From the NCBI GenBank assembly GCA_021200475.1, contig JAJQGP010000003.1, positions 18,836 to 82,835 of the forward strand: 64,000 nt of DNA, in the 5' to 3' direction. Of the stretch, positions 595 to 17,309 are shown one piece after another. The DNA comes from Lachnospiraceae bacterium (GTDB lineage: Bacteria > Bacillota > Clostridia > Lachnospirales > Lachnospiraceae). The notes below the pieces were generated by a model. That model was not told the DNA's origin. It saw only the letters and a list, made by a program, of their open reading frames with translations, and searched no databases. How positions within the stretch are numbered: position 1 is the first letter of the stretch; each line of letters begins with the position of its first letter. The position numbers and the translations under genes are program-made.

Positions 595-2754
595 ATGATT
601 GGAAAAATTTCCAGACGGGATTTTCTGAAGGGTTCCGCGGCGACGGCGGCTTCCCTGGCACTTTCCATGACGTTTGCGGGCGGCTTTTCACAGAGCGTAG
701 TACAGGCGTCGGAGGACATTGACTTTGATGAGTATTATACGACTTCTACCGAGATCTACAATGAGGTGCTCGGCGAATTCTATGACGCGTATATGGTATC
801 AAAGGATGCGGAGACGGTATCCGAGCGTTATGCGCTGATGGCAGTTGCAGAGGCGAAGATTATGGAGGCGGCTGTATTCCTGCCGACGAACTCAAACGGC
901 GGTTCATACCGTCTGACCAGAGTCGTTCCGTATTCCGCTACGACGACCCTCTGGGGCAATGATTCAGATCGGTATTTTACCGTGCTGGTTACCACGGAGA
1001 TGATCTCGCTTGAGGATTACAACGCACTGAAGACTCTGTGGAATGAGACCAGAGGCACCGGCACTTATGAGAGTGAGGCGCGTGCATATCTGGAGGAGCA
1101 CGGATATGAAGTAAAGGATGAATATAATCTCGCATATAACACAGATCCGGTGACCTGGGATGCTCTGGCGACTTCCCTTTCCGCGGACTCTGAGGCGATT
1201 GTCAATACCTATGACGGTCTGATGCTTTATGATGTAGAGAATGAGCTTCAGCCGGCGCTGGCAGAGAGCTATGAGGTTTCTGAGGATGGCCTGACCTATA
1301 CCTTCCACATTCGTGAGGGCGTGTCATGGGTGGATTCCCAGGGCAGAGAGGCGGCAGGCGTGGTTGCGGATGACTTCGTAGCCGGTATGCAGCACATGAT
1401 GGACGCACAGGGGGGGCTTGAGTACCTGATCGAGGGCATTATCGTGAACGCTTCCGAGTATATCTCCGGCGAAGTGACCGATTTTGCTGAGGTCGGCGTA
1501 GAGGCAGTGGATGATTATACACTTGTCTATACACTGGAAGCTCCGTGCTCTTATTTCCTGACGATGCTCGGCTACAATGTATTTGCGCCGATGAGCCGTA
1601 CGTATTATGAGTCTCAGGGCGGCAAGTTCGGTATGGAGTATGATTCCTCCGCAGCGGATTACAATTACGGCAAGAGCGCGGATACCATCGCTTACTGCGG
1701 TCCGTATCTTGTGACCGGACATACCGAGCAGAACTCCATCGTCTTCTCCGCGAACCCGACCTACTGGAACGCAGATGCGGTGAACATTCAGACTCTGACC
1801 TGGAAGTACGATGACGGCAGCGACCCGACGAAGCTTTACAATGACTTCCTCAATGGCACGGTTGACGCGGTTGGTCTGACCTCTTCGATTCTGGAACTGG
1901 CGAAGTCAGATGGTTATTTTGATGATTACGCTTCCGTTTCCGGTACGGATGCGACGACCTTCTTCAATATGTACAACCTGAACCGTGTTGCTCTCGTGAA
2001 CTTTAACGATGGCACGACCGCTCCTTCACCGAAGACCGAGGAAGAGCTGGAGCGCTCCAACGTGGCGATGAAGAATGTACACTTCCGCCGTGCGCTTTCC
2101 TATGCGACCGACCGTGCGTCCATGATGGCGCAGGTACGCGGCGATGAGCTGAAGTACACGAATATGCGCAACTCCTACACGCCGTGGAACTTTGTATCCC
2201 TTGAAGAGGATGTGACCATTGATATCAACGGCGAGGCGACGACCTTTGCGGCTGGCACCTATTATGGTGTGATCATGCAGGCGCAGCTGGATGCGGATGG
2301 AATTCCGATGAATGTTTATGACGCGTCTGCAGACGACGGCAACGGCAGCGGCGACGGCTATGACGGCATCTACAATGTAGACAATGCAGTAGCTGAGATG
2401 GCGACAGCTGTGGAAGAGCTGGCGGCAAAAGGTGTGGACATCAGCGCTGAGAACCCGATCTACCTTGATCTGGTATATCCGAGCCAGGTAGAAGCGTACA
2501 CGAACCGTGCGAACGCGTTCAAGCAGTCGATTGAGGGTGCTCTTGACGGACAGATCATCATCAACATGGTCGACGGCAGCGATTACTCAGGCTGGTATTA
2601 CGCGAATTATTACAACACCTATGGCTATGAGCAGAACAGCGATATCAACGATACGACAGGCTGGGGTCCGGACTACGGTGATCCATCCACCTATCTTGAT
2701 ACACTCCTTCCGGATTACGCGGGCTACATGACTAAGGGCTTTGGTATCTTCTAA
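595..2754 (+). CDS. oppA: Oligopeptide ABC substrate-binding protein (AmiA/OppA-like, family 5), circularly permuted, Tat signal
   Basis: Motifs DPVTWD, PALAESYEVSEDGLTYTFHIREG, GPY and WGPDYGDPSTYLD; SRRDFLK signal; SD GGAGG before the ATG. Confidence 0.9.
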   Translation: MIGKISRRDFLKGSAATAASLALSMTFAGGFSQSVVQASEDIDFDEYYTTSTEIYNEVLGEFYDAYMVSKDAETVSERYALMAVAEAKIMEAAVFLPTNSNGGSYRLTRVVPYSATTTLWGNDSDRYFTVLVTTEMISLEDYNALKTLWNETRGTGTYESEARAYLEEHGYEVKDEYNLAYNTDPVTWDALATSLSADSEAIVNTYDGLMLYDVENELQPALAESYEVSEDGLTYTFHIREGVSWVDSQGREAAGVVADDFVAGMQHMMDAQGGLEYLIEGIIVNASEYISGEVTDFAEVGVEAVDDYTLVYTLEAPCSYFLTMLGYNVFAPMSRTYYESQGGKFGMEYDSSAADYNYGKSADTIAYCGPYLVTGHTEQNSIVFSANPTYWNADAVNIQTLTWKYDDGSDPTKLYNDFLNGTVDAVGLTSSILELAKSDGYFDDYASVSGTDATTFFNMYNLNRVALVNFNDGTTAPSPKTEEELERSNVAMKNVHFRRALSYATDRASMMAQVRGDELKYTNMRNSYTPWNFVSLEEDVTIDINGEATTFAAGTYYGVIMQAQLDADGIPMNVYDASADDGNGSGDGYDGIYNVDNAVAEMATAVEELAAKGVDISAENPIYLDLVYPSQVEAYTNRANAFKQSIEGALDGQIIINMVDGSDYSGWYYANYYNTYGYEQNSDINDTTGWGPDYGDPSTYLDTLLPDYAGYMTKGFGIF

Positions 2755-3017: not shown

Positions 3018-4589
3018 GTGGGAAAATATTTAGTCAAACGAATTATCACAGGCCTGTTGTCGGTCGTTGTCGTGGTCGCCTGTGTCATGATCATGGTTTA
3101 TTCTCTCCTGAATCGTGATCTGGTCTTTGCGGCGGATACGACATACACGCATCAGAGCAACAACCAGAAGACCGTTTATAAGTACTCTAAGTGGGAAGAG
3201 TACGGTTATCTGGATTATGTGACATATTCCGATTATCTGTCCATGCTCGTCGATGAGGGAGAGATCGATGAGGATACCCGGAGCTCGGCGGTGAGCTTTG
3301 GCCGGACCGCAGACGCGGATTCGGAGCTGGTATCCGAATATGTGCAGAAATTTACGGAGTATTATGAATCGAGAGGATATACGGTGACGCGGCTGGATGC
3401 GGTCATGATGAACGCGAAGAAGGTCGCGACCGGCGGGCAGCAGCAGCTCTACGCTTACAAGGATGTTCCGCTGATCACCAGGCTGATCAAATACTTCAGC
3501 GGAATGATCACCGTCGATAATATCCACAATGTTGAGGAAGACATCGGAGAGCGGGGACTGACGTTCACCCTTTATGACCCGGTTTACGGTGGAGACAAAT
3601 TATCGCCGGCGATTATGGGAAATGGTACGACGCATAAGTACCTGCTTTATATGACGTCGAGTTTTCCATTTATTCACCAGAACCTGGTATCGATCAATCT
3701 TGGCGAATCGTATACGGTCAACACGGGCGTGGACGTGTTTACGACAATGACGCGGAGCCAGGGCTCGTATGTCTCAAGTACGATCACCTACCCAACCGGG
3801 CTGACAGAGGAAAGCGCCGATGATCTGCACTCTGCGACCTATCTGGCAGGTTCTCTGGGGACGAGCCAGGTTTACGCGACCCGCTATACGGATGATTACA
3901 CGAGCGTGCAGACCGTGAAAAAGGGCGCTTCCAAGATTGGCTATTCTTTTATCATCGGTATTCTGGCAGTGGCGCTGTCTTATCTGCTTGGAGTGCCTCT
4001 TGGTATTCTGATGGCGCTCAAAAAGGATACGATTGTGGATCAGATCGGTACGGTTTATGTGATCTTTATCATTGCGGTGCCGTCCCTGGCGTATATTTTC
4101 CTTTTCAAAGCGATTGGCGGGAAGATTGGACTGCCCACGACCTTTGACGTCGAGAAGCTGAAGTGGACGATGTATGTGCTGCCGGTGATTTCGCTTGCCT
4201 TGCCGTCCATCGCGAGCCTGATGAAGTGGCTGCGCCGTTACATGATTGATCAGATGAATGCGGACTATGTGAAGTTCGCGCGGGCAGGCGGCCTGACGGA
4301 GTCGGAGATTTTCAGCCGGCATATTTTCAAAAACGCAGTGATCCCGATCGTGCAGGGTATCCCGGGCAGTGTCCTGGGCGCGCTGGTCGGCGCGATCATT
4401 ACGGAACGTGTGTACGTCGTTCCCGGCGCCGGCGGTTTGCTGACGGATGCGATTAACAAATACGACAATGGCGTGATTGTGGGCGTGACCCTGTTTTACG
4501 CGCTGCTGTCCGTGATTTCCATTATCCTCGGCGATGTGCTGATGTCCGTTGTGGATCCGAGGATTTCATTTACATCGAAAGACAGGTAG
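3018..4589 (+). CDS. oppB: Oligopeptide ABC permease (AmiC/OppB-like) with large extracytoplasmic loop
   Basis: N-terminal TM helix, large loop, EAA motif (DYVKFARAGGLTESEIFSRHIFKNA), TERVY.VPG.G; GTG start with GGAG SD. Confidence 0.9.
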   Translation: MGKYLVKRIITGLLSVVVVVACVMIMVYSLLNRDLVFAADTTYTHQSNNQKTVYKYSKWEEYGYLDYVTYSDYLSMLVDEGEIDEDTRSSAVSFGRTADADSELVSEYVQKFTEYYESRGYTVTRLDAVMMNAKKVATGGQQQLYAYKDVPLITRLIKYFSGMITVDNIHNVEEDIGERGLTFTLYDPVYGGDKLSPAIMGNGTTHKYLLYMTSSFPFIHQNLVSINLGESYTVNTGVDVFTTMTRSQGSYVSSTITYPTGLTEESADDLHSATYLAGSLGTSQVYATRYTDDYTSVQTVKKGASKIGYSFIIGILAVALSYLLGVPLGILMALKKDTIVDQIGTVYVIFIIAVPSLAYIFLFKAIGGKIGLPTTFDVEKLKWTMYVLPVISLALPSIASLMKWLRRYMIDQMNADYVKFARAGGLTESEIFSRHIFKNAVIPIVQGIPGSVLGALVGAIITERVYVVPGAGGLLTDAINKYDNGVIVGVTLFYALLSVISIILGDVLMSVVDPRISFTSKDR

Positions 4590-4595
4590 GGGCTT

Positions 4596-5567
4596 ATGAG
4601 CAGAGTAGATTATGAAAAATACGGTATGACCAAAGAGGAACTGTTCGCCCCTGTCGAGCACAGTGATCTTGAATCTGAGAAGATCACCGCTCCGCGATAC
4701 TCCTACTGGAACTCCGTGTTTCGTGTGTTTTTCCGTAAAAAGATTAATTTTGTAATACTTGGCCTTCTGGTCGTTATTTTACTGTTCACGTACGTTTATC
4801 CGGCATTGGTGGATTATGATCGGTTCGGGAACCTGCTGGATTCGACGACGAAGCACCTGGGGCCGCTTCAGGCAATGAAACAGCTGGGGTATAACATCCA
4901 CTGGATTCTGGGCTCGGGCAGCTCCGGACAGTCCACTTTTGACGCAGTCTGGTACGGCGCACGTATTTCTGTGTCACTGGCTTTCGTCTGTGCAGCGATC
5001 AACCTGACGATCGGTACGATTGTCGGTGCGCTCTGGGGGTTTTCCAGAAGAATGGATTCCATTATGATCCCGATTTATAATATTATCGGGAACGTGCCGA
5101 TGGTCCTGTTGGTTTCGGTGCTCGTCATGCTTCTGTCAGCGAGCTTCTGGACGCTGGTATTATCCCTGACGATTACCGAATGGCTGTTTGTTGCTTATTT
5201 TATCCGAACGCAGGTTATCATTATCCGTGACAGGGAGTACAATCTGGCGTCCAAGTGTCTGGGGTCCAGCTCGGTACGGATTACGATGAAGAATATTCTG
5301 CCGTTCATGACCTCTATAATCGTGACTCTGACAGCGACAGAGATTCCGTCCTATATTTCTTACGAAGTGTTCCTCGCCTACATTGGCATGGGTCTTTCGG
5401 AGATGTCGCTGGGGCGCCTGATTTACGCGGCGGAGAGCGCGATGGTGACGCCGGGATGGGAATTCGAATTCTGGTCTCCGGTAGCAGTCGTGGCGATCAT
5501 TACGGTCGTTCTGTATGTTGTGGGGCAGAACCTGGGCGACGCGACTGACCCGAGAACGCATATGTAA
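4596..5567 (+). CDS. oppC: Oligopeptide ABC permease (AmiD/OppC-like)
   Basis: SYWNSVFRVF N-terminal motif, EAA motif REYNLASKCLGSS, multiple TM helices. Confidence 0.9.
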   Translation: MSRVDYEKYGMTKEELFAPVEHSDLESEKITAPRYSYWNSVFRVFFRKKINFVILGLLVVILLFTYVYPALVDYDRFGNLLDSTTKHLGPLQAMKQLGYNIHWILGSGSSGQSTFDAVWYGARISVSLAFVCAAINLTIGTIVGALWGFSRRMDSIMIPIYNIIGNVPMVLLVSVLVMLLSASFWTLVLSLTITEWLFVAYFIRTQVIIIRDREYNLASKCLGSSSVRITMKNILPFMTSIIVTLTATEIPSYISYEVFLAYIGMGLSEMSLGRLIYAAESAMVTPGWEFEFWSPVAVVAIITVVLYVVGQNLGDATDPRTHM

Positions 5568-5579
5568 GGGAGGCCGGTT

Positions 5580-7331
5580 ATGGAAGAACAGAAGGTATTA
5601 TTATCGGTAAAGGATCTGTGGGTGAAGTTCCGTGTGCGCGGCCGGGTGCTGACTGCGATTCGTGGGATTTCCCTGGATATTTATGAGGGCGAGTCGATCG
5701 CCATCGTGGGCGAGTCTGGTTCTGGAAAGTCTGTGTTTACGAAGACTTTTTCCGGTATGAACGACGCGAACGGATTTATTGACCAGGGAACGATTATCTT
5801 CAATGACGAGGAACTGGCGGACACGACAGCTCCGCTGAATAACAGAGCGAAAAGGCTGATTGAGCGCTCCAGACGCCAGCTGGATCAGTATGCGAAGCTG
5901 GAACTGGGCGCTGCGGTTTACCGGAAGATGCAGGATCTCGAGTCAGAGAAGCACCGCAGGGAATGCGTCAGTGAGGAAGAGCAGAACCGGGAAAAAGAAG
6001 AACTGGATGGGCTGGTTGCGAAGCGGACGGATCTGTATAATCTGAAGCAGACGCTTGACCCGCATAAGGAAAAGGATAAGATTCATGAGATGTCCAGGCA
6101 GATTTCCGCGCTGGACAAACAGATCAAAGAAGTACAGAAAAAGGACGGGGAGCTTTTAAAAGAGCAGCAGAAAAAAGCTTCACAGGACACCACGTTTCTG
6201 AAGGAATATGAGCAGAAAAAAGCCGCGCTGCAGGCGGAATATGATAAGCTGATTCAGGGAGAGATTTCAGAAAAGACAAAGCAGCGCAATGAGATTCTTG
6301 CAAAGGAAATTTACCTGTCTATTGGCCGATACGATGGAAGACAGCGCAGCAAGCTGGCAAAAGGCCTGACGGAAGCGCTGAAGCAGGCGATGCAGATCGG
6401 GGTGGATCTGGATGACGAAAATGAGCGCAATAAGGTTTTCGATACGGTCGCGTTTCGTGTGCGGTATCTGGATGAGACAGCAGATACGATTCACGGCACC
6501 TGTGTGCTGAACCTGGCGAATGTGAAGTACGCGAAGGACTGGAGCCGCATCCGCGGCAGGAAGATCGCGACGGTGTTCCAGGATCCGATGACCTCTTTGA
6601 ACCCGATTCTGACGATTGGAAAGCAGATTACTTCTATTATAATTAAACATCAGGGCTGTTCAGAAGGCGAAGCCAGAAAACGTGCGCTGGTGCTGATGCA
6701 CAAGGTTGGCATTCCGAACGCGGAGGCGCGTTTTGACGATTATCCGTTCCAGTATTCGGGCGGTATGCGTCAGAGGATCGTCATCGCGATTGCACTTTCC
6801 TGCCAGCCGAAGATCCTGATCTGCGACGAACCGACCACCGCTCTCGATGTGACGATTCAGGCACAGATTTTGCAGCTGTTAAAAGACCTGCAGAAGGAGC
6901 TGGGCTTCACGATTGTCTTTATTACGCATGACCTTGGCGTTGTGGCCAACATTGCGGACCGCGTGGCTGTGCTGTATGCCGGACAGATTGTCGAGCTTGG
7001 CAAGGTGGAGGAGGTCTTTTACGACCCGCGCCACCCGTACACCTGGGCGCTTCTTTCCTCGCTGCCGCAGCTGGCGCAGCGGAACACGAAGCTGTACTCC
7101 ATCACAGGTACGCCGCCTTCGCTCTACAATCAGATCGTAGGCGACGCGTTTGCTCCCAGAAACCCGTATTGCATGAAGATCGACACTTTGGAGGAGCCGC
7201 CAATGTTCCCGGTCACAGAGACGCATTTTGCGAAGACGTGGCTGCTGGATGAGGACGCTCCGGAAGTGGAAGGCCCGGAGGCGATCCGGGACATCCACCA
7301 GAAGCTGCTTGATGCGTATCACCTGGCGTGA
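5580..7331 (+). CDS. oppD: Oligopeptide ABC ATPase (OppD) with long coiled-coil insertion
   Basis: Walker A GESGSGKS, FQDPMTSLNP, signature YSGGMRQR, Walker B ILICDEPT, HPYT oligopeptide C-terminal domain. Confidence 0.92.
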   Translation: MEEQKVLLSVKDLWVKFRVRGRVLTAIRGISLDIYEGESIAIVGESGSGKSVFTKTFSGMNDANGFIDQGTIIFNDEELADTTAPLNNRAKRLIERSRRQLDQYAKLELGAAVYRKMQDLESEKHRRECVSEEEQNREKEELDGLVAKRTDLYNLKQTLDPHKEKDKIHEMSRQISALDKQIKEVQKKDGELLKEQQKKASQDTTFLKEYEQKKAALQAEYDKLIQGEISEKTKQRNEILAKEIYLSIGRYDGRQRSKLAKGLTEALKQAMQIGVDLDDENERNKVFDTVAFRVRYLDETADTIHGTCVLNLANVKYAKDWSRIRGRKIATVFQDPMTSLNPILTIGKQITSIIIKHQGCSEGEARKRALVLMHKVGIPNAEARFDDYPFQYSGGMRQRIVIAIALSCQPKILICDEPTTALDVTIQAQILQLLKDLQKELGFTIVFITHDLGVVANIADRVAVLYAGQIVELGKVEEVFYDPRHPYTWALLSSLPQLAQRNTKLYSITGTPPSLYNQIVGDAFAPRNPYCMKIDTLEEPPMFPVTETHFAKTWLLDEDAPEVEGPEAIRDIHQKLLDAYHLA

Positions 7332-7351: not shown

Positions 7352-8659
7352 GTGGCGAAACAGAATCAGGAATTAGGATCCAGTGCGTCCCATCTGCCGG
7401 AGCACGGTCCGATTGATGAGCAGGGCAGAGAAATTTTATTATCCGTTAAAAATGTGGATATTACGTTTGGAAAGGGCGAGAATGCGGTTCGCGCCGTGAA
7501 GAACGCTTCTTTTGATATTTATAAGGGCGAGACCTTTTCCCTGGTGGGTGAGTCTGGTTCCGGCAAGACGACGATCGGGCGCGCGGTAATCCGCGTTAAC
7601 CCGTGCGCGGCTGGCGAGATCCAGTATAAGGGCGTCCGCATTTCCGGCAAGATTCCGCATTCCCTTGACCGGGAGGTCATCCGGAATATCCAGATGGTAT
7701 TTCAGGATCCGGCGGCTTCGCTGAATGAGCGTGCGACGGTCGACTATATTGTATCAGAAGGTCTGTACAACTTCCACCTGTACGAAAACGAGGCGGATCG
7801 TGTCCGTAAGGTGGAAAACATCATTGAAGAAGTAGGTCTTTTGAAAGAACATCTGACCCGCTATCCGCACGAGTTTTCCGGCGGACAGCGCCAGAGAATC
7901 GGTCTGGCGAGAGCGATGGTCATGGAACCGGAGCTGGTCGTAGCGGACGAGCCGATCTCCGCGCTCGACGTCTCCATCCGTGCGCAGGTGCTGAACCTGA
8001 TGAAGAAATTCCAGGAGGAAAAGGACGTCACCTACCTCTTTATCGCACATGACCTTTCCGTCGTGCGGTTCATCTCGGACCGCATCGGCGTTATCTACAA
8101 AGGCAATATTGTAGAGATTGCGGCAGCGGAAGAACTGTTTGACTTTCCATTGCATCCCTACACTCACTCGCTGATCTCGGCGATTCCGATCCCGGATCCG
8201 CAGCTGGAGAAAAACAAGGTGCTGTATACCTACGATCCTTCGATCCATGACTACAGTACAGATCAGCCGGAGCTGGTCAACATCGGTCATGACCATTATG
8301 TCTACGGAAACAAAAAAGAGATTGAGGAATACCGCAAGATCCGTGAGAAGGGAGAGATCCTGCAGCCGATCCGTATCCTGAAAGAAGGAGAGGAACGCCC
8401 GAAGGAGGAGAAGGACGGTTCGCTGACTGCGGCGGACGATCAGTTCCTGAAGGCGCCGGTACACGATACCGGCAGCGGGATTTATATGTTCCTGTCGTTC
8501 TTCCTGCCGATCATCGGACTGATCGCGGGGCAGATATTTAAGAGCAAGCAGTATTATCGAAACTATCACGCCTGCAAAAAGGGCGCGATCGCCGGCCTGA
8601 TCACGCTGGCGGTAATCATCGTCATCTTCCTGATCTTCCTGGGGCTGGCGATCATATGA
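7352..8659 (+). CDS. oppF: Oligopeptide ABC ATPase (OppF) with C-terminal two-TM extension
   Basis: [35 protein letters not shown]; hydrophobic C-terminal tail. Confidence 0.92.
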
Positions 8660-8667
8660 TTTAACCA

Positions 8668-8881
8668 GTTCAGAGCAGCAACAAAATGAAAAGACAGACT
8701 GTGCAGATTTATCTGCAAAAGGCTGTATTTTCATTTTGGGATGGGCGGGCGCTGAACGTCCAGTGGACGTTCGCTTAGCGCCGACCGAAGTGGAACGGAG
8801 ACGCCCATCAGCCACAGATATATGACGCGAAAGCGGCATATAGGCTGCGTAGCAGACGGTCTGTGGCCTGCTGCTCTGAAC
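8668..8881. repeat. Family-A MITE/REP-like palindromic element (long copy)
   Basis: Perfect 13 bp terminal IR GTTCAGAGCAGCA/TGCTGCTCTGAAC; internal hairpin GAACGTCC-AGT-GGACGTTC; shares blocks with 48450-48564. Confidence 0.8.
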
Positions 8882-9065
8882 GATTAGTAGTATTATCTTA
8901 ATAAAATAAGATAGCCGCAGGGAACCGTCAAAGGAGATTGGGCGGTTTACCTGCGGCTACACTTTTACAGGTGAGCCGCGCCGTGCAGAATTGCCTGCGG
9001 CAATGGCGCGGCCTGCGTTATAAGGAATCCTCCGGCAGGCCGGTTTCCCTTATGACATATCATGA

Positions 9066-10352
9066 ATGAAGAATGGAGCAGATGATTCTATGAAACGCAC
9101 CACAAGGGGACGAAGGTCGACGGACTCAGATTCCGGGAAAAATGTAGATATTAAGATAAAACACTGGAAACTGCGTCTGGTTTTTGTGATTCTGTTTGCC
9201 ATCGTCGGAATCAGTGCGCTGGCCAATGGCGTGCTTGGCCTCCTCAGTTCGGATGACGGCTGGCAGGAGATTGAGGCGGATTCTTCGTCGACCGGGAACA
9301 ACGGCAGCGAATTCATTTTTGAATATTATCTGGGCGCGAGCGGCCTTTCCGTGTCTGCGGAGAAAAAGGCATTGATCTCGCTCTATACATCTGCGCTGGA
9401 GACGGCTTATCAGAATTTTCACAACGAGGAGAGCTTCGACGGCGTCAATAATATTTGCTATATCAACGCACACCCAAATGAGGAGATCGTAGTGGACGAC
9501 ATTCTCTACGATGCGTTTGCCCTAATGGAGGAATCTGGCGGCCGACAGCTTTATCTGGGGCCAATTTATACCGAATACAACAACCTGTTTTACTGCAATG
9601 ATGACTGGGAGACTGCGGAGTATGACCCGTATCAGAATGAGGAGGTGGCGGAGTATTTCGCGGAGATTTTATCCTACGCCTCTTCGGACGAACAGATTGA
9701 ATTGCGTCTGCTCGGAGATAACACCATAATGCTTTATGTTTCGGATGAATACCTGGCCTATGCAAAGGAAACAGGGTTCCTCAGCTATATTGACTTCTTC
9801 TGGATGAAAAACGCTTTCATCATTGACTACCTTGCTGATACGTTGATTGAAAATGGCTATACGCTCGGCGCGATCTCCAGCTATGACGGTTTTGTGCGGA
9901 ATCTTGACACCAGCGGAACTGAATGGACCTTCAACATTTACAACCGTGTGGAGCAGACGGTTTACCAAGCGGCCTCTATGGAATATGAGGGCGCGCGCAG
10001 CATTGTTTTCCTGCGCGATTACATGATGAACAGCAGCTTCGACGTCCAGCATTATTATGAGCTGGAGGATGGAGAATTCCGCACCGCTTATATCGATACG
10101 GCGGACGGATACTGTAAATCCTCGATTGACAGCCTGGTTTCTTATTCGGAGAATCTGGGCTGCGCAGAAATTCTGCTGCGAATGCTTCCTATCTATATCG
10201 CAGATGAATTTGATGCGGACGCACTGGAGGAACTGAGGGAGGATGGAATCTATTCGATCTATTGTGAGGAGCAGGTGATTTACTGCAATGACCCGGATGT
10301 CAGCATTACGGATCTGTATGACGAGGATGATGTGACGTATGTACTTGAATGA
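9066..10352 (+). CDS. Membrane-anchored, divergent ApbE-like (FAD:protein FMN transferase fold) protein
   Basis: N-terminal TM helix. Segments NNICYINAHPNEEIVVD, IDFFWMKNAFIIDYLADTL and HYYELEDGEFRTAYIDTADGY follow the order of ApbE motifs but are degenerate. Alternative start at 9090. Confidence 0.6.
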   Translation: MKNGADDSMKRTTRGRRSTDSDSGKNVDIKIKHWKLRLVFVILFAIVGISALANGVLGLLSSDDGWQEIEADSSSTGNNGSEFIFEYYLGASGLSVSAEKKALISLYTSALETAYQNFHNEESFDGVNNICYINAHPNEEIVVDDILYDAFALMEESGGRQLYLGPIYTEYNNLFYCNDDWETAEYDPYQNEEVAEYFAEILSYASSDEQIELRLLGDNTIMLYVSDEYLAYAKETGFLSYIDFFWMKNAFIIDYLADTLIENGYTLGAISSYDGFVRNLDTSGTEWTFNIYNRVEQTVYQAASMEYEGARSIVFLRDYMMNSSFDVQHYYELEDGEFRTAYIDTADGYCKSSIDSLVSYSENLGCAEILLRMLPIYIADEFDADALEELREDGIYSIYCEEQVIYCNDPDVSITDLYDEDDVTYVLE

Positions 10353-10480
10353 AAAGATTCCCAATTCAAACGAAGGAGCTGTTGAAATAACTCATGCCTT
10401 TTGTATCGCCTGAGACATTGCATAAGGTGTTTTTCGATAGCTTTTGACGTCGATATTTCAGGGAGATGTGTGGGGAAAAA

Positions 10481-12046
10481 ATGAAAAAATATCTTAATAC
10501 GATACGTTGGTATATCGTCGGTACCATTGCGGCGAACTTTATAGAAGCAGTCATTAGCGCGGTTATGCTGCTGTTTCCCGGTTGGCTTATTGATAACTAT
10601 CAAAAAGGGTTTGCATATACAGGAAAACTTCTGGCTGCATACGCGGGTGTGTTCCTGATTTATCTTGTTGAGGCATATTGTTCCAATCGTCTGGCGGATT
10701 ACCGCCGCATCCGGTTCGAAAAAGCCATAAAGAAGGACTTTTTTGATGCCGTAATTCAGCGAGACTTTGGGACATTTCACCAGTATGATGTGGCGGAATA
10801 CATTTCCATGCAGGCAAATGACATTACAGAAATGTGCCAGAACTACTTGAGCCCTCTGCTTTCTATCATTCGCTCCGTTATGATGATCGCTGTATACGGA
10901 GTGTTTCTGGTGATTTTTGTAGATATCTCCATTGCTATGGTGATTCTGATTTTCTCTGTAGCGGTGGTTTTTGTGCCGAAGCTCACGGAGAAAGATCTGG
11001 CGAAGCGGAATAAGGGCTATATGGACGGGATTGGCCGCTATACCGCTTCCGCGAAGCTTCTGTATGAAGCTCATGATATTCTGAATTTTAAGGGACGAAA
11101 AAAACTCACTGAGCTTCACGACGGGGAGTTGGATCATGTTCTGAACCTTAATATGCATTTTCGGAAGCTGAACAGCCTGGCCATGGTATTGAACGGCGGT
11201 TCTGTGGAAGCAATTGGCGTGATTGTTTTTGCAGTGATAGCTATTTTACTTGGAAATCACGCCATTACCCTTGGGATGGCGGTCAACGCCTTTACCTACA
11301 GCACCAAATTCATTGACCCCATGTACGAAATGAATATTTGTATCGGCATGGTCAATTCCGTTCGTGAGATACAGAAAAAATTGTTGGAGATCATTGGAAG
11401 CGGCATGGACGATGCTCCCGCAGATCTGCCAGCTGCGCCGGAAATCCACAGAATTTCCGCGACAGCTATGAAAAAGCACTATGACAGCGCGGACATCCGA
11501 ACCCCGGCGGCAGAGCTGTCTTTTCCGAAAAAATATCTGGTTTTGGGAGAAAACGGTGCGGGAAAAAGTGTATTCTTTCGCCTGCTCATGCATTTTGAGG
11601 AAGCTGATTCCGGTGCGGTTTTCTATAACGGATGCAAGGAGAGTGATTTCATTTCTGAAAGTATCTGTTATGTGCCCCAGGCTCCGGTGATTTTTAATGC
11701 CTCCTATCTGGAAAACGTGACGGTCTATGGCGCTTATGATGGGAAGAAGCTAAAAGAATATGAAGCGTATTTTCCGGCCGACATGATTTCCCATATTAAG
11801 AGCAGCACGAATCCTCTGAACATGAGCGGTGGGGAGAAACAGGTGGTTGCTCTGCTTCGGGCGTTATGCAGCGGAAAGGATATGATATTTCTGGACGAGC
11901 CCTTTGCAGCCATGAACCAGCATACGATTGATGAATTTATGAAGCATATAGCACAAATAAACCGAACATTGGTTATCATTGCCCACAATTTAGAACCGTA
12001 TGCGGAACAATTCGACGAACAGATCTGGATTTGTCGTGAGATGTAG
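10481..12046 (+). CDS. ABC exporter, fused TM domain plus NBD
   Basis: About 6 TM helices, then Walker A GENGAGKS, signature MSGGEKQ and Walker B IFLDEP. Confidence 0.85.
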   Translation: MKKYLNTIRWYIVGTIAANFIEAVISAVMLLFPGWLIDNYQKGFAYTGKLLAAYAGVFLIYLVEAYCSNRLADYRRIRFEKAIKKDFFDAVIQRDFGTFHQYDVAEYISMQANDITEMCQNYLSPLLSIIRSVMMIAVYGVFLVIFVDISIAMVILIFSVAVVFVPKLTEKDLAKRNKGYMDGIGRYTASAKLLYEAHDILNFKGRKKLTELHDGELDHVLNLNMHFRKLNSLAMVLNGGSVEAIGVIVFAVIAILLGNHAITLGMAVNAFTYSTKFIDPMYEMNICIGMVNSVREIQKKLLEIIGSGMDDAPADLPAAPEIHRISATAMKKHYDSADIRTPAAELSFPKKYLVLGENGAGKSVFFRLLMHFEEADSGAVFYNGCKESDFISESICYVPQAPVIFNASYLENVTVYGAYDGKKLKEYEAYFPADMISHIKSSTNPLNMSGGEKQVVALLRALCSGKDMIFLDEPFAAMNQHTIDEFMKHIAQINRTLVIIAHNLEPYAEQFDEQIWICREM

Positions 12047-12094
12047 AAAATGAAAAGGTTTGCTGTTAGATTATAAGTGAAAGGGGATGCTATA

Positions 12095-12271
12095 ATGGGG
12101 GAAACAGGAATGTCAGAGAAGGTTTTAGTGGATCAGACAATACGGGAATATGTCAATTTACAGAGGATAAAGAACACGGATGACAAAGAGAAAGAGCTGG
12201 AATACCAGGAAAAGGTTTTGAAAGCCAGGTTATCATCGATGGGGATTCCGACAGAAAATCTGGAACCTTGA
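12095..12271 (+). CDS. Small charged hypothetical protein (start 12095 or 12110)
   Basis: SD-like AAGGGG; helical, charged sequence of ~55 aa (YVNLQRIK...ELEYQEK.LKARL..MGI); followed by a terminator-like hairpin. Confidence 0.7.
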   Translation: MGETGMSEKVLVDQTIREYVNLQRIKNTDDKEKELEYQEKVLKARLSSMGIPTENLEP

Positions 12272-12343
12272 AGTAACTGTAAAGGAATGGAACAGTTGAT
12301 TTTAAGGATTGCAGAGTGATTCTTACATATTACAGAGTGAGTG

Positions 12344-12374
12344 AGAGCCTGCCGTGTTATGCGGCAGGCTCTTT
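12344..12374 (+). terminator. Intrinsic terminator-like hairpin
   Basis: AGAGCCTGCCG-7 nt-CGGCAGGCTCT, followed by TT. Confidence 0.65.
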
Positions 12375-12504
12375 GACCGGAAAAGCTTATTGCCGTTTCA
12401 AAATTATACGGGTTTTTATTGAGGTGAATCGGAATATAAAAAGAAAATATTAAAATATTATAGGATTAACTTAAAAATAAAACAAAGCAAATAAATAATG
12501 CATG

Positions 12505-12532
12505 TTGACATTTCTGAATTAAGTGATATCAT
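12505..12532 (+). promoter_or_regulatory. Promoter of the Rpn-like gene
   Basis: TTGACA (12505-12510), 16 bp spacer, extended -10 TG-A-TATCAT. Confidence 0.6.
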
Positions 12533-12648
12533 ATAAAATATCTAACTGCAAAACAGAAACATATCATTTCATACATCAGATAAATCAGAAATCAAAGTGA
12601 AAATAATCCCAAAAATGAATAGCCAATAACGAAGAGATGGAGTAAAAT

Positions 12649-13674
12649 ATGAGAGATAAGACAAAGAATGTAGAAAAACAACTGCAAACAGAGGAACCGC
12701 CTCAGCAGGAGGTAAATGTACCTGGAGACTTGAATCAGATAGAAGATGGCGTCATGAAAAAAATGATGCAGTTTTTTGCTGATGAAATGCTTCCGGTTTT
12801 TGGCATTTCAAAGAAAGTAAAAGCTCTTGCACCTACGGAGCAGGTGCGCATGGAACTCAAAAAGGGATTGCAGGATTTCAATCTTGTGATGGAAGATAAC
12901 AGTATCGCACATTTTGAGTTTCAGTCGACCAATGGGGGCAGACGCGATTTGAGAAGATTTCGCCTGTATGAGGCAGATACCAGCTATCAGCTTCGCCAGC
13001 CTGTTACTACGTATGTATTGTTTTCGGGCAATATTAAGAATCCTAAGACAAAGCTTAAGGAAGGAATCAATACATATAAGATCATACCAATTATCATGAA
13101 GAAGCAGAATGCAGATCGTATCCTGAGGCAATTGAAAGAGAAACTGAAAACCGGTCAGCCATTAACTCGAAAAGATCTGGTGATTCTTCCCATGCTCCCA
13201 ATTATGGGTGGGAAGATTTCGATAAAAGATCGGATCAAAACCGCTTACAATATTACAAAGAATGCAAACCTTATATCACGAGACGATGTGCGACTGGTTG
13301 AGTCGGCCATCTATGCGATGGCTACAAAGTTTTTGGACAAAAATGCATTAAATGAAGTGAAGGAGGAATTTACAATGAATATATTCGGAGAACTTATTGT
13401 GGAAGGGAGAGAAAAGGGCCTTATGGAGGGTCGTAAGGAGGGCCGTAAGGAAGGCCGCAAAGAGGGTCGCATAGAGGGCCGCATAGAAGGCCGCAAAGAG
13501 GGCCGTAAAGAAGGCCGCATAGAAGGTCGACAAGAAGTAATTACCGAGCAGGTAGAAAAGAAATTGAAAAAAGGAAAGACTGTTGAAGAAATTGCGGATG
13601 CTTTAGAACTGGATGAAGTTACGATCAGAGAAGTAATTGAGAAATTGTCCGGAAAGCAGCTGGTGAATGCCTGA
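12649..13674 (+). CDS. Rpn-family-like PD-(D/E)XK nuclease / putative transposase
   Basis: QDF...AHFEFQS nuclease-type motif, EG(R)xEG tandem repeats and a C-terminal helix-turn-helix-like tail (KTVEEIADALEL), all typical of Rpn/YhgA-like proteins. Confidence 0.75.
   Translation: MRDKTKNVEKQLQTEEPPQQEVNVPGDLNQIEDGVMKKMMQFFADEMLPVFGISKKVKALAPTEQVRMELKKGLQDFNLVMEDNSIAHFEFQSTNGGRRDLRRFRLYEADTSYQLRQPVTTYVLFSGNIKNPKTKLKEGINTYKIIPIIMKKQNADRILRQLKEKLKTGQPLTRKDLVILPMLPIMGGKISIKDRIKTAYNITKNANLISRDDVRLVESAIYAMATKFLDKNALNEVKEEFTMNIFGELIVEGREKGLMEGRKEGRKEGRKEGRIEGRIEGRKEGRKEGRIEGRQEVITEQVEKKLKKGKTVEEIADALELDEVTIREVIEKLSGKQLVNA
13375..13674 (+). CDS. Putative intragenic small protein (RpnS-like, 99 aa), in frame with the Rpn-like gene
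   Basis: AAGGAGG at 13360-13366, 8 nt spacer, in-frame ATG at 13375. Confidence 0.6.
   Translation: MNIFGELIVEGREKGLMEGRKEGRKEGRKEGRIEGRIEGRKEGRKEGRIEGRQEVITEQVEKKLKKGKTVEEIADALELDEVTIREVIEKLSGKQLVNA
13426..13533 (+). repeat. Nine 12-nt tandem coding repeats (EGR[K/I/Q])
   Basis: Direct repeats of the GA(A/G)GGC/TCGY-type unit encoding EGRK/EGRI/EGRQ. Confidence 0.95.
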
Positions 13675-13720
13675 AAAGCAACTATTTTAGAGTAGCGTTC
13701 TGAAAATTGGGATAAAAACA

Positions 13721-14272
13721 ATGAATTATAAGATAATACGCAGCAACCGAAAAACAATTTCCCTCCAGGTAAGGGAAGAGGGCGTGATTGTCCGCGCACC
13801 GTATCGGATGTCGGACGCGGCGATCGCACAGTTCGTGCAGCAACATACGGACTGGATATTGAAGCAGCAGAATAAGCTTTCCGAGGCGCTGAAGAATCAG
13901 CCGGAGGTGGAGCGGCTTACTATGGAAGAGCTTCGCGCACTGGCGGATCAGGCTTTGAAGGTGATACCGGAGAGGGTGAGGTATTACGCTCCGCAGGTAG
14001 GCGTGACTTACGGGCGGATTACGATTCGGAATCAGAGATCACGCTGGGGAAGCTGTTCTGCAAAAGGGAATTTGAATTTTAATTGCCTGCTGATGCTGAC
14101 TCCGCCGGAGGTGATTGACAGCGTGGTGGTGCATGAGCTTTGCCATCGGAAGGAAATGAATCATTCGAAGGCTTTTTACGCGGAAGTGCTGCGCGTCTTT
14201 CCGGATTATTATAAATGGGACAGATGGCTCAAAGAGCATGGCAATGAATTGATGCGGCGAATGACCGGTTAA
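13721..14272 (+). CDS. YgjP/DUF45-like M48 metallopeptidase-family protein
   Basis: RSNRKTISL N-terminus, SRWGSC, VVVHELCH (HExxH), NHSKAFY. Confidence 0.85.
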   Translation: MNYKIIRSNRKTISLQVREEGVIVRAPYRMSDAAIAQFVQQHTDWILKQQNKLSEALKNQPEVERLTMEELRALADQALKVIPERVRYYAPQVGVTYGRITIRNQRSRWGSCSAKGNLNFNCLLMLTPPEVIDSVVVHELCHRKEMNHSKAFYAEVLRVFPDYYKWDRWLKEHGNELMRRMTG

Positions 14273-14313
14273 GATTTTATTCATTCTGCATATTTGGTGA
14301 TTGGGGGAAAAAG

Positions 14314-14634
14314 ATGATTTATACATTAGATGAACTCAAGTCAAGGGTAAATCCTGTCGCGAAAAAATATCAGTTGAAAGCAGTTTATCTTTTTGGTTCC
14401 TATGCCAGAAATGAAGCGACCGAAGAAAGTGATGTAGATATTCTTGTAGACAGACAGGGGTCTGTTATTCGAGGCCTGTTTGAGATGGGTGGACTATACA
14501 ATGACTTAAAGGAGAGCGTAGGTAAGGAAATTGACCTTGTAACCACACAGATGTTGGAGCAGAAAAGTACCCGGGAACGAACTCCGTGGTTCGTTGATAA
14601 TTTAAAAGAGGAGATGGTGAAAATATATGAATAA
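14314..14634 (+). CDS. Minimal nucleotidyltransferase (MNT) antitoxin
   Basis: YLFGSYARNEATEESDVDILVD (GSx10DxD). Confidence 0.9.
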   Translation: MIYTLDELKSRVNPVAKKYQLKAVYLFGSYARNEATEESDVDILVDRQGSVIRGLFEMGGLYNDLKESVGKEIDLVTTQMLEQKSTRERTPWFVDNLKEEMVKIYE

Positions 14635-14972
14635 AAGTGATAAAGAGCGGTTGATCCATATCTGCAGGCATTGCAAGGATATTGAGGAGTTTATTCAGCG
14701 GTTTGGCAATGATTTTTACGTTTTTACAAATGATAGAGCATATGTGAATGCGGTTTGTATGAGCGTCCTTCAAATTGGCGAATGGCCTTTCAGAAGAATA
14801 TCGGTCTGAGACGAAAAATCTCATGCCATGGGGAATGATACGTGGAATGCGAAATTGGCTTGCGCATGCATATTCTTCTATGGATGAGAGCATCATATGG
14901 GAAACAGCAACGAATGATATTCCGGCGTTATTAAGGTTTTGCTGCGACCAATTGAGCGATGAAAAGAATTAA
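14627..14972 (+). pseudogene. HEPN/DUF86 toxin, frameshifted
   Basis: Two overlapping ORFs (…LQIGE in one frame, ANGLSEE…RNWLAH… in another); the Rx4H motif is intact; overlaps the MNT stop codon. Confidence 0.85.
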
Positions 14973-15049
14973 ATGGAAACCAGAAGGAGTGTACACACTA
15001 TATAAGCGAGCAGGAGACTGATATGTGTCTCCTGCTCACAACAATTACA

Positions 15050-17047
15050 TTACAGCGCCGCCACGATTTTTGCCGCGCGGCGGCCAAAGGTCATGGTGCG
15101 GCCGCAGGCCAGTCCGGTGAAGAGATTCGGGTAGGTCTGGGAGAAGAAGCCGCCGGTGCAGTCGCCGGTTGCGTACAGGCCTTCGATGGCGGTGCCGTCC
15201 TCGCGGATGACCTGCATATCGGTGTTGATGCGGCAGCCGTTCAGGGTGGTCAGGTGCCATGCGCCGGTGCGGACGCCGTAGAATGGCGCGGTGTCGACCG
15301 GGGTCATGCGGTGCGCTTCTTTGCCATAGTCCTCATCTACGCCTGCCGCGCACAGCTCGTTATAGCGCTCAACGGTGGTGACGAAGGTACCTGCCGGGAT
15401 ATTCAGCTTTTCTGCGAGCTCTTCGAGGGTGTCGGCTTTCTGCACATAGCCGTCCTCGATCAGAGTCTCGACGGAGCTCCATACATAATCATAGGTCATA
15501 TTGGAGAGCGCGCCGTTCGGGAACGCAAACAGACGGCAGCAGCCGACCTCGTCAAACTGTTCCGCATACTGCTCGTTATTCGCGTCGAAAATGTCACAGT
15601 AGGTATGATTGGGCTGCATACACATCGAGTGGAGCATGAATTCATACGGGCCGGACTCGTTGCAGAAGCGCTCACCGTTTAAGTTTACCTTCAGGAAGGG
15701 CTGCTCGCCAAACCAGAACCAGCGGCCGGTGGTCTCGTATCCGGCTGTCTCGGTCGGCAGACAGCAGCAGCGGTTGAACATCATGGACGCATGGGTCGGG
15801 TCAAGTGCGGCTCCTGCCCAGAGCATGGCTTTGATGCCGGAGCCGTCGCAGGTGGAGCCAAGGGTGTAATTGATTTTCATATCCAATGTCTGCGGCTGAA
15901 GCGCTTTCATCATCTGCGTGTTGGTTGCGTAGCCGCCCGTGCACATGATGACGCCCTTTGTCGCGGTGATACGAATATAATGCTCGTCGTTCTGATCCTG
16001 CGCGATGATGCCGGTCACTTTTCCGGCCGAATCCTGTTCCAGCCTGATCAGCGCGGTAGAGAGCTTCCATTCTACGCCGAGCTCATCGCAATGTGCCTGG
16101 AATGTCGTATTTAATGTGGTGCCTTCCGGAGCGTCATCGGTAGTGTGCGGGCTGTGGCCGGTTGCGTAGGCTTTGTCACGTCCGGGATCGTCCGTATTGC
16201 CGACGCCGCCTTCCAGACTCATGTACCAGTTCCCGGTGCTCTCCAGCAGCTCGGTCAGCCAGTCCACCAGCTCACCGCTGTTGTCCTCCCAGCAGCGGAT
16301 CAGGTTGGAATCCACATAGCCTCCGCCGTAGCGGACGATATCCTGCATGGCCTCAATTTTATCAATCTCAAATTCCGGGTATTCCTCAAAGGAAGCCAGC
16401 TGAAGGGAAGAATTGATCGCACCGATGTCCTCGCGCGGTCCGGTCGGGGATTCCCGTTTCTCAACAACGAGCACTTTCGCGCCCTCTTCTGCAGCGGTCA
16501 TGGCGGCAATCCATCCGCCGGAGCCGCAGCCGACCACGAGTACTTCTGTTTCCAGCTCTTCTGTGATGTCGGACTCCGCAATTTCCGGAGCCTCGCCCAG
16601 CCATTCGGCCGCTTCCTCTTCCTCGCCGCTGACGGTCACGGAAATACCGGACGCCTGAGAAATACAGTTCGCCGCGGCCTGTTTCACTGCGTCGCTGGTC
16701 ACGGTAGCACCGGACACTGCGTCCACGTCACAGCTCTGGGAGTTTAGAATTGCCTGTACCATCTCATCGCCGATGTCGGCGCCGATGCCGGCCGTCTCGC
16801 CGGAAACATCGATCTGCACATCGGTAATGCTTGTCTCATCAAAGGTCATGGTGACTGTCACAACACTGCCGATGCCCTTGGCCACCGCGGAATAGGTCCC
16901 TGGGGTGTAGGAGAGTGCCTCGGCGGCCAGTACCTTTGCACCTGCGGCGCTCTCTGCGCCTGGCAATACATGGATCGCTGCCGCACCTGCGGCGGTCGCT
17001 GCCATCGTTTTGATGAAATCTCTGCGTGAAATTGATTGCTTTGCCAT
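15050..17047 (-). CDS. Tat-exported flavoprotein reductase: FMN-binding domain plus FAD-binding (flavocytochrome c/fumarate reductase superfamily) domain
   Basis: Start 17047 with GGAGG SD; SRRDFIK signal; flavinylation motif DAVSGATVTS (16694-16723); GCGSGG FAD motif; GLYATGD. Confidence 0.88.
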   Translation of the reverse strand: MAKQSISRRDFIKTMAATAAGAAAIHVLPGAESAAGAKVLAAEALSYTPGTYSAVAKGIGSVVTVTMTFDETSITDVQIDVSGETAGIGADIGDEMVQAILNSQSCDVDAVSGATVTSDAVKQAAANCISQASGISVTVSGEEEEAAEWLGEAPEIAESDITEELETEVLVVGCGSGGWIAAMTAAEEGAKVLVVEKRESPTGPREDIGAINSSLQLASFEEYPEFEIDKIEAMQDIVRYGGGYVDSNLIRCWEDNSGELVDWLTELLESTGNWYMSLEGGVGNTDDPGRDKAYATGHSPHTTDDAPEGTTLNTTFQAHCDELGVEWKLSTALIRLEQDSAGKVTGIIAQDQNDEHYIRITATKGVIMCTGGYATNTQMMKALQPQTLDMKINYTLGSTCDGSGIKAMLWAGAALDPTHASMMFNRCCCLPTETAGYETTGRWFWFGEQPFLKVNLNGERFCNESGPYEFMLHSMCMQPNHTYCDIFDANNEQYAEQFDEVGCCRLFAFPNGALSNMTYDYVWSSVETLIEDGYVQKADTLEELAEKLNIPAGTFVTTVERYNELCAAGVDEDYGKEAHRMTPVDTAPFYGVRTGAWHLTTLNGCRINTDMQVIREDGTAIEGLYATGDCTGGFFSQTYPNLFTGLACGRTMTFGRRAAKIVAAL

Positions 17048-17309
17048 AGCATTTTCCTCCTGAAAGAATAGATGATTTGGTTTTTCTGATGCATTCATTT
17101 TACTATAACCCGCAGGAAATGAAAAGTAAAAAAACAGGTGATTCCAGAAGAATACCAAAAGGTATGGTTTACGATGGATGCTGATGCCCGAATTGGATGT
17201 AAAATGAATTTGCCGAAGAAAAATGCATTGACGGGGAAGCGGTTTCTATTTTATGATAGCGGCATAAAGGTTTTCCTTCGTAACTGGGTTATAATAGGAC
17301 AGGGGATGG

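Follow-up and report, generated by a model that had tools for sequence, protein, structure and literature searches.

Organization of the locus

In a 64,000-nucleotide stretch of the genome of a Lachnospiraceae bacterium (assembly GCA_021200475.1, contig JAJQGP010000003.1, positions 18,836 to 82,835 of the forward strand; hereafter, the window), five genes for an oligopeptide (Opp) importer, oppA, oppB, oppC, oppD, and oppF, are followed on the same strand by an open reading frame (ORF) whose product resembles the flavin transferase ApbE (Table 1). A preliminary description of the DNA had proposed this product, termed here the ApbE-like protein, to be a possible pseudoenzyme with eroded catalytic motifs, serving either as an unusual flavin transferase or as a fold repurposed for binding. 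The decisive context, namely that the gene is obligately linked to an Opp importer of atypical kind, was missing from the text of that description and is the main new result of the present analysis.

Table 1 Features of the opp locus and of the ApbE-like protein (positions in the window; residues of the ORF as listed).
Feature	Position	Strand	Basis and remarks
oppA/AmiA-like SBP_bac_5 binding protein	595..2754	+	Pfam/NCBIfam; twin-arginine translocation (Tat) signal, no lipobox in the window's clade
oppB-like permease	3018..4589	+	Pfam/NCBIfam, hydropathy; ~285-aa extracytoplasmic insert between transmembrane (TM) helices TM1 and TM2
oppC-like permease	4596..5567	+	Pfam/NCBIfam
oppD-like ATPase with long insertion	5580..7331	+	708 bits to NF043079 (cut-off 740)
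oppF-like ATPase	7352..8659	+	Pfam/NCBIfam, hydropathy; C-terminal TM helices at residues 377-395 and 417-435
Dispersed structured repeat, 406 bp	8660..9065	+	Between oppF and the ApbE-like gene; insertion in this genus only, genes abut in other species
ApbE-like gene (membrane-anchored ApbE-fold protein)	9066..10352	+	ORF call; 428 aa as listed
Predicted N-terminal TM anchor, residues ~34-60	9165..9245	+	AlphaFold2 (AF2) helix 34-60; hydrophobic 19-mers at 31-56
Predicted extracytoplasmic ApbE-fold domain, residues ~63-428 (~365 aa)	9252..10349	+	Foldseek alignments; HHalign coverage 34-413
Remodelled motif 1, D243-D254 (ApbE DLGGIAKGY..D)	9792..9827	+	Gly-Gly to F/W246, Lys to N249 97%, D254 100%
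Remodelled motif 2, S271-D281 (ApbE NLGG[ND])	9876..9908	+	S272 96%, D274 95%, G275 99%, F276 Phe/Tyr 98%, R278 93%
Remodelled motif 3 region, S312-Y331 (ApbE TSGDYER)	9999..10058	+	R317 82%, D326 83%; 7-8-residue insertion
Remodelled motif 4, R339-G348 (ApbE HHIxDPxTG)	10080..10109	+	His to T340, second His to Pro/Ala, G348 95%
Remodelled motif 5, C366-L371 (ApbE ADALST)	10161..10178	+	C366 100%, Asp to E368, Thr to hydrophobic

The true start of the ApbE-like gene is probably the ATG at 9090, which gives a protein of 420 aa, because the second Met (MKRT...) is the first residue of the homologs and a GGAG (9075-9078) lies 11 nt upstream of this codon. A basic cytoplasmic tail, with a median net charge of +4 across the family, precedes the TM helix. 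Anchor and tail would place the ApbE-fold domain outside the cell, and the protein is predicted to be a type-II membrane-anchored extracytoplasmic protein. No recognisable fused domain was found in the longer family members (444-534 aa). The acidic, Tyr-rich composition of the ApbE-like protein was also observed in OppA and in the OppB insert, and is not specific to it.

Fold and remote homology

The ApbE-like protein was compared with Pfam, NCBIfam, and PDB by sequence, and nothing significant was obtained; in the family models there was no match at E ≤ 10, and none of 32 family members matched PF02424, the ApbE model, even at that threshold. The canonical ApbE of the same genome, used as a positive control, scored 303 bits. 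In a family-profile search, the best PDB match was the ApbE structure 1vrm, with an E-value of 0.68 and over the HPNE segment only.

The AF2 model, built from a 32-sequence alignment, had a predicted local distance difference test (pLDDT) score of 86 and a predicted template modelling (pTM) score of 0.81. When this model was compared with PDB by Foldseek, the check proposed beforehand in the preliminary description, the top 30 matches were all ApbE, Ftp, or FmnB structures (E-values of 1e-12 to 2e-7), and the next fold followed at an E-value of 0.86. The alignments extended over 369-395 columns, that is, over the whole length of the 309-330-residue ApbE chains, and the target-normalised TM-score reached 0.74 (0.73-0.74 for the best structures). 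Hence, the modelled protein has the three-dimensional fold of ApbE, in which tandem T-fold domains carry a helical insert. Profile-profile comparison also indicated common ancestry: HHalign of the 146-member family against 27 canonical ApbEs of the phylum gave a probability of 94.1% and an E-value of 1.3e-7 over 327 columns, and a shallower global run paired the motifs identically. The ApbE-like fold claimed earlier was thus confirmed by structure and by profile. These results indicated that the protein descends from the ApbE/Ftp flavin-transferase fold, though no family model recognises it.

Loss of the catalytic residues and rebuilding of the site

The functional residues of ApbE were taken from published structures and mutants. 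The enzymes share a conserved Ser-His-Asp core (Vc S241/H257/D285, corresponding to FmnB S257/H273/D301) and two Mg2+ ions (PMC12052999). The catalytic His (Vc H257, Tp H256, FmnB H273) acts as the general base and also retains flavin adenine dinucleotide (FAD) in the pocket (PMC12052999, PMC4436053, PMC8906456). In Ftp of Treponema pallidum, D284 and T288 are metal ligands, D284A and T288A abolish the activity, and S240, E244, R245, H256, and K165 are further functional residues (PMC4436053). In FmnB, K190, R262, N216, and the carbonyl of A187 are functional, and K190A abrogates the activity (PMC8906456). Replacement by Ala of the equivalents of K190, H273, T305, S257, and R262 abolishes or lowers the activity of FmnB or Ftp (PMC4436053, PMC8906456). 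We counted the residues at the corresponding HHalign columns in 146 diverse members of the ApbE-like family (≤50% mutual identity) and in the 27 canonical ApbEs, using FmnB numbering for comparison (Table 2).

Table 2 Residues at functional ApbE positions.
ApbE residue (FmnB numbering)	Canonical ApbE	ApbE-like family
Lys (K190)	100%	N249, Asn 97%
Ser (S257)	100%	Variable: L316 (64% Leu, strand register) or S323 (24% Ser, HHalign)
Arg (R262)	100%	His 30%, Arg 25%
Catalytic His (H273)	93%	T340: Thr 53%, Ser 14%, His 8%, Asn 8%
Second His (H274)	100%	Pro 42%, Ala 18%
Mg-binding Thr (T305)	100%	Hydrophobic-type: Leu, Met, Ala, Val, Ile
Gly-Gly (G186, A187)	100% / Gly 56% + Ala 44%	G186 position variable (Gly 25%, Tyr 21%, Phe 19%); A187 position W246 (75% Trp)
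Mg-binding Asp (D301)	96%	E368: Glu 62%, Asp 19%, acidic 81%; Gln, Ala, and Lys also occur

The catalytic His, the Mg-binding Thr, the essential Lys of AKG, the Gly-Gly/Ala backbone site for Mg, the Ser of TSG, and the Glu-Arg of YER are not retained in the family, and the Mg-binding Asp alone is partly kept, as Glu or Asp. The preliminary description would have been refuted by an alignment in which the His and the Mg ligands are retained; the present alignment did not show this. Its pairings of DLGGIAKGY with DFFWMKNAF, of HHIxDPxTG with TAYIDTADG (catalytic His absent), and of ADALSTA with AEILLRM were reproduced by HHalign; the change of Asp to Glu in the last of these is conservative and had not been flagged. 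The list of motif changes was thus essentially right, with two reservations. The GGD motif is indeed changed, but the proposed YDG was one position out of register, as HHalign pairs L-G-G-N with Y-D-G-F. LRDY in place of TSGxY agrees with the register of the predicted strand, whereas HHalign prefers S323-S324; the two registers of TSGxYER differ by a 7-residue insertion, and the Ser is unconserved in both.

The word eroded, by which these motifs had been described, fits the disappearance of the catalytic residues but not the state of the gene. The ratio of nonsynonymous to synonymous substitution rates (dN/dS) was 0.06-0.12 in 7 comparisons with relatives, and the gene is therefore under purifying selection and not decaying. 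Among members of ≤50% identity, 18 positions were ≥95% conserved, and D187 was conserved in 98%. The five former active-site motifs remain the most conserved segments of the family with family-specific residues, including N249, D254, S272, D274, R278, and C366. As the former motifs carry their own conserved set, the site was rebuilt and not simply lost; it may now form a filled core, a binding cleft, or a new catalytic site. In the operational sense of an enzyme fold with lost catalytic residues under purifying selection, the protein is a pseudoenzyme, and this part of the earlier proposal is supported by the fold, the profile homology, and the family-wide census. To judge from these columns, the protein would no longer have the chemistry for FAD-dependent transfer of flavin mononucleotide (FMN), and is presumably non-catalytic.

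C366 (nt 10161-10163) was invariant in 146 of 146 members and is located at the N-terminus of the helix equivalent to the Mg/diphosphate-binding ADALST helix of ApbE. This residue may be a reactive thiol or a core residue.

Linkage to an atypical Opp importer

The best NCBIfam matches of all five transporter proteins were the Opp models of Mollicutes (NF043077-NF043081; MMSYN1_0165 to 0169). The match of OppD to NF043079 was full length, covering model positions 1-557 of 561 with the long insertion included. We surveyed 80 loci of the ApbE-like gene from species-representative genomes. In 77 of them, the gene came immediately after a co-oriented oppF, usually at a distance of 1 bp, and the other 3 had no upstream DNA. 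Three homologs of ~50% identity were preceded by the same five genes (a large SBP_bac_5 protein, a 523-aa permease, a permease, a 582-aa ATPase, and a 437-aa ATPase) and followed by unrelated genes, and the gap between oppF and the ApbE-like gene was 1 bp in all three. In loci L017/L039, L078, and L085, the binding-protein gene comes after the ApbE-like gene, which therefore lies inside the operon between oppF and oppA. By this conserved, co-oriented position, the ApbE-like gene behaves as that of a subunit of an Opp/Ami importer. In most species it would be translationally coupled to oppF. The two-helix tail of OppF, unusual for an importer ATPase, was present in 74 of 75 linked loci. In a sample of 41 genomes (with 24 other species of the same genus and 16 other families), 7 had both the ApbE-like gene and the OppF tail, on the same contigs, and 34 had neither.

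The family comprises 829 clusters at 90% identity and 959 representatives at 50% identity. Its members were found in 260 species-representative genomes, nearly all from gut Lachnospiraceae; among them are Roseburia hominis, R. inulinivorans DSM 16841, and Fusicatenibacter faecihominis. The ApbE-like gene was absent from all 350 genomes sampled across the phylum. Neither it nor a full-length long OppD was detected in 100 other genera of the family, so that among these 101 genera both occurred only in the present genome. The six-gene unit is rare, patchy, and inherited as a block. Both this block inheritance and the 1-bp coupling to oppF favour a dedicated partner that is co-produced with the importer. 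A published study of peptide operons (PMC3534369) deals with generic peptide/nickel operons only.

Two relatives of the same genus carried a damaged copy (G181:C212:23496-24761 and G169:C47:1528-3003), of which one is interrupted by an in-frame TGA and the other is broken into two pieces. Either sporadic pseudogenisation or errors of assembly could account for them.

Proposed role of the ApbE-like protein

We lean slightly toward the reading that the protein is a non-flavinylating accessory ectodomain of ApbE fold, dedicated to the peptide importer, on whose outer side it would bind either a ligand or the surface of a partner. It would be the sixth component of a Mollicutes-like oligopeptide importer of the Ami/Opp type (OppA-B-C-D-F-X) that is patchy in Lachnospiraceae, and it would act non-catalytically. 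The former FAD cleft may have been rebuilt with the bulky aromatics W246 and F276 and the polar residues N249, S272, D274, R278, R317, D326, and C366. The rebuilt cleft would then bind the ligand or partner surface, making the protein an auxiliary recognition or scaffold subunit. The evolutionary rates are compatible with such a role: by Kimura distance, the ApbE-like protein was the fastest-evolving subunit (0.83), followed by OppA (0.56) and the others (0.23-0.37), and fast evolution is typical of exposed binding proteins.

Several points weigh against this reading. Physical association and a bound ligand are both hypothetical, and the occlusion or remodelling of the cleft is deduced from sequence alone. 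Conservation is lowest in the anchor and tail and higher in the ectodomain; the function therefore lies in the ectodomain, and no specific contact between TM helices is indicated. Mirror-tree analysis of 57 complete operons, with the permeases controlled for, gave partial correlations of 0.26-0.36 between the ApbE-like protein and OppF, -0.04 between it and OppA, and 0.28 between OppA and OppD. The covariation of the ectodomain with either half of OppF was no stronger than that between the two halves, and is best explained by linkage. Finally, the invariant Cys and the conserved Arg and Asp could equally mark a new catalytic site.

Two covariation blocks, OppA with OppD and OppF with the ApbE-like protein, were observed in loci L018-L097. 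They suggest a recombination breakpoint inside the operon and not physical co-evolution.

The main alternative is that the protein is a re-tooled enzyme. Its new active site, formed by C366 with R278, R317, D274, D326, and N249, would process cargo outside the cell before import by Opp, for example by stripping a modification from peptides or peptide conjugates. Highly conserved residues (C366 and D254, 100%; D187, 98%; N249, 97%; S272, 96%; D274, 95%; R278, 93%) fall in the former active-site motifs, the purifying selection is strong, and coupling to an importer fits a process-then-import scheme. However, there is no invariant His or clear general base (H136, 69%; H329, 30%), the protein resembles no Cys-dependent enzyme family, and it evolves fastest of all the subunits, as binding or surface proteins more typically do. 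We therefore consider a re-tooled enzyme unlikely, though worth keeping in mind. With similarly modest expectation, we raise the broader proposal that the ApbE fold was recruited as a new extracytoplasmic sixth subunit of an ATP-binding cassette (ABC) importer, either as a second, chemically distinct recognition site or as a Cys366-dependent ecto-enzyme that processes cargo before import.

A third reading is that the anchored domain, whose ancestor recognised a protein substrate, serves as a membrane tether or dock for OppA. OppA of the present genome has a Tat signal with an AXA-type cleavage site and neither a Cys nor a lipobox, and a monoderm cell would need some means of retaining it; the ApbE-like protein is predicted to be membrane-anchored and co-expressed. 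Against this, of the 57 loci with the ApbE-like gene, at least 49 have an OppA with a classical lipobox, an ordinary lipoprotein. In L018, the OppA allele has 68% identity while the other five genes have 94-100%, the ApbE-like gene ~97%, a pattern suggesting that recombination replaced the binding-protein gene. The partial correlation with OppA, as given above, also argues against the tether, and we regard this role as improbable. As a general explanation it was rejected, since only the window's own clade has the form of OppA that carries a Tat signal but lacks a lipobox.

Export signals of OppA differ among the loci: besides the classical lipobox of most loci, the signal is of the Tat type without a lipobox in this clade (L018-L020 and L023), and of the Sec signal-peptidase-I type in L021/L022.

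Relation to flavinylation

The preliminary description had pointed to a canonical flavinylation target, DAVSGATVTS, about 6 kb away, and thereby implied a link between it and an unusual flavin transferase. The motif is present at 16723 on the reverse strand; no second flavinylation motif occurs in any of the six reading frames of the window. It belongs to an ORF (15050-17158) for a reductase with a Tat signal and FMN_bind and FAD_binding_2 domains, 6.4 kb from the ApbE-like gene. Such a reductase adjoins the locus in only 1 of the 80 loci, that of a near-identical relative. Neither the motif D-x-x-[ST]-G-A-[ST] in the six proteins of the operon nor an association of the gene with flavinylation substrates (FMN_bind, NqrC, RnfG) was found. 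A functional link to the flavinylation substrate was therefore rejected, and the nearby motif is coincidental.

A canonical apbE elsewhere in the genome, whose presence had been recommended for checking, was found: the single copy, which served as the positive control above (G000:C122:5416-6288), has every classical motif, and the genome encodes ten FMN_bind domains. Canonical ApbE was present in 7 of 7 sampled genomes bearing the ApbE-like gene, so the latter is not a replacement for it, and in 92 of the 100 other genera. That the protein is still a flavin transferase or FAD binder with non-canonical residues, serving the FMN_bind reductase or other flavinylated proteins, is thus very improbable. 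The ApbE fold, the extracytoplasmic location, the retained acidity of the Mg-binding Asp position (81% of members), and the supply of potential substrates in the genome would suit it, but the equivalents of K190, H273, T305, S257, and R262 are replaced family-wide and the genomic context offers it no consistent substrate. A decaying, functionless relic of an apbE duplicate is scarcely credible, for, in spite of the lost catalytic residues, the highest rate in the operon, and the two damaged copies in the genus, it is effectively refuted by the low dN/dS, and the frame is intact and full length in nearly all copies examined, the family is found in 260 species, and both the 18 conserved positions and the abutting position after oppF are maintained.

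Surroundings of the operon

The 406-bp repeat between oppF and the ApbE-like gene had 64 matches in its own genome, with modules at ~7-221 and 310-405. Its predicted RNA fold had an energy of -194.7 kcal/mol (z-score -10.8), and an Rfam search of 8660-9065 returned no family. The repeat resembles a genus-specific element of the miniature inverted-repeat transposable element (MITE) or repetitive extragenic palindrome (REP) kind. Of the genes 3' of the ApbE-like gene (10466-17158), which encode an ABC exporter, an Rpn-like ORF, a YgjP-like metallopeptidase, an MNT nucleotidyltransferase, and the Tat-FMN_bind reductase, none occurred in more than 1 of 80 related loci. The operon borders a variable region. 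A plasmid search gave no matches.

Significance and comparison with known systems

The only activity reported for ApbE, to our knowledge, is the flavinylation of extracytoplasmic redox proteins. In the literature searched, no ApbE-fold pseudoenzyme and no Opp-linked ApbE homolog was found. If our reading is correct, the protein would be the first pseudoenzyme or neo-functionalised form of ApbE, representing a large family (~960 clusters at 50% identity) for which Pfam and NCBIfam have no model. It would also be an unexpected addition to the otherwise canonical five-protein design of Opp. On the broader proposal raised above, it would make up, together with a membrane-tethered OppF, a long OppD, and an enlarged OppB ectodomain, an undescribed six-component transporter architecture. 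The carriers include cultured, health-associated butyrate producers (the three species named above), and the question is therefore experimentally accessible. The family should not be annotated as flavin transferases, nor should a capacity for flavinylation be deduced from the fold alone.

In comparison with ApbE, Ftp, and FmnB (PF02424; PDB 4IFU, 7ESA, 1VRM, 6NXI, 4XGV, and 3PND), the ApbE-like protein has the same whole-domain fold, remote homology, and a predicted extracytoplasmic, membrane-attached location. Conservation still peaks at the five motif positions along the central cleft, and D243 of motif 1 (85%) and D254 of the following helix (100%) are kept. In contrast, it falls below the threshold of every sequence model, the Lys, His, Ser, Arg, and Mg-binding Thr are replaced, and Gly-Gly has given way to bulky aromatics. 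Its predicted anchor is an N-terminal TM helix and not a lipid, and across the 80 loci it is linked to the Opp importer and not to Nqr, Rnf, or FMN_bind substrates, with a single reductase neighbour.

Like pseudoenzymes in general (reviewed in PMC5106787 and PMC10211241), the ApbE-like protein has an enzyme fold without the catalytic residues of its family and is under purifying selection, with a fixed genomic partner. Pseudoenzymes are kept as binders, scaffolds, or regulators, and the ApbE-like protein would join them if it is non-catalytic, as its residues suggest.

OppBCDFA of Mollicutes, compared through its models (NF043077-NF043081), is the closest counterpart of the transporter itself. 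These were the best models for all five genes, OppD was matched in full length including its insertion, and in the Butyrivibrio-type order (B-C-D-F-X-A), much as in Mollicutes, oppA stands at the end. The scores were, however, below the equivalog cut-offs, and the present importer differs in the two-helix tail of OppF and the larger extracytoplasmic insert of OppB. The Mollicutes models describe five subunits and include none for an ApbE-like sixth.

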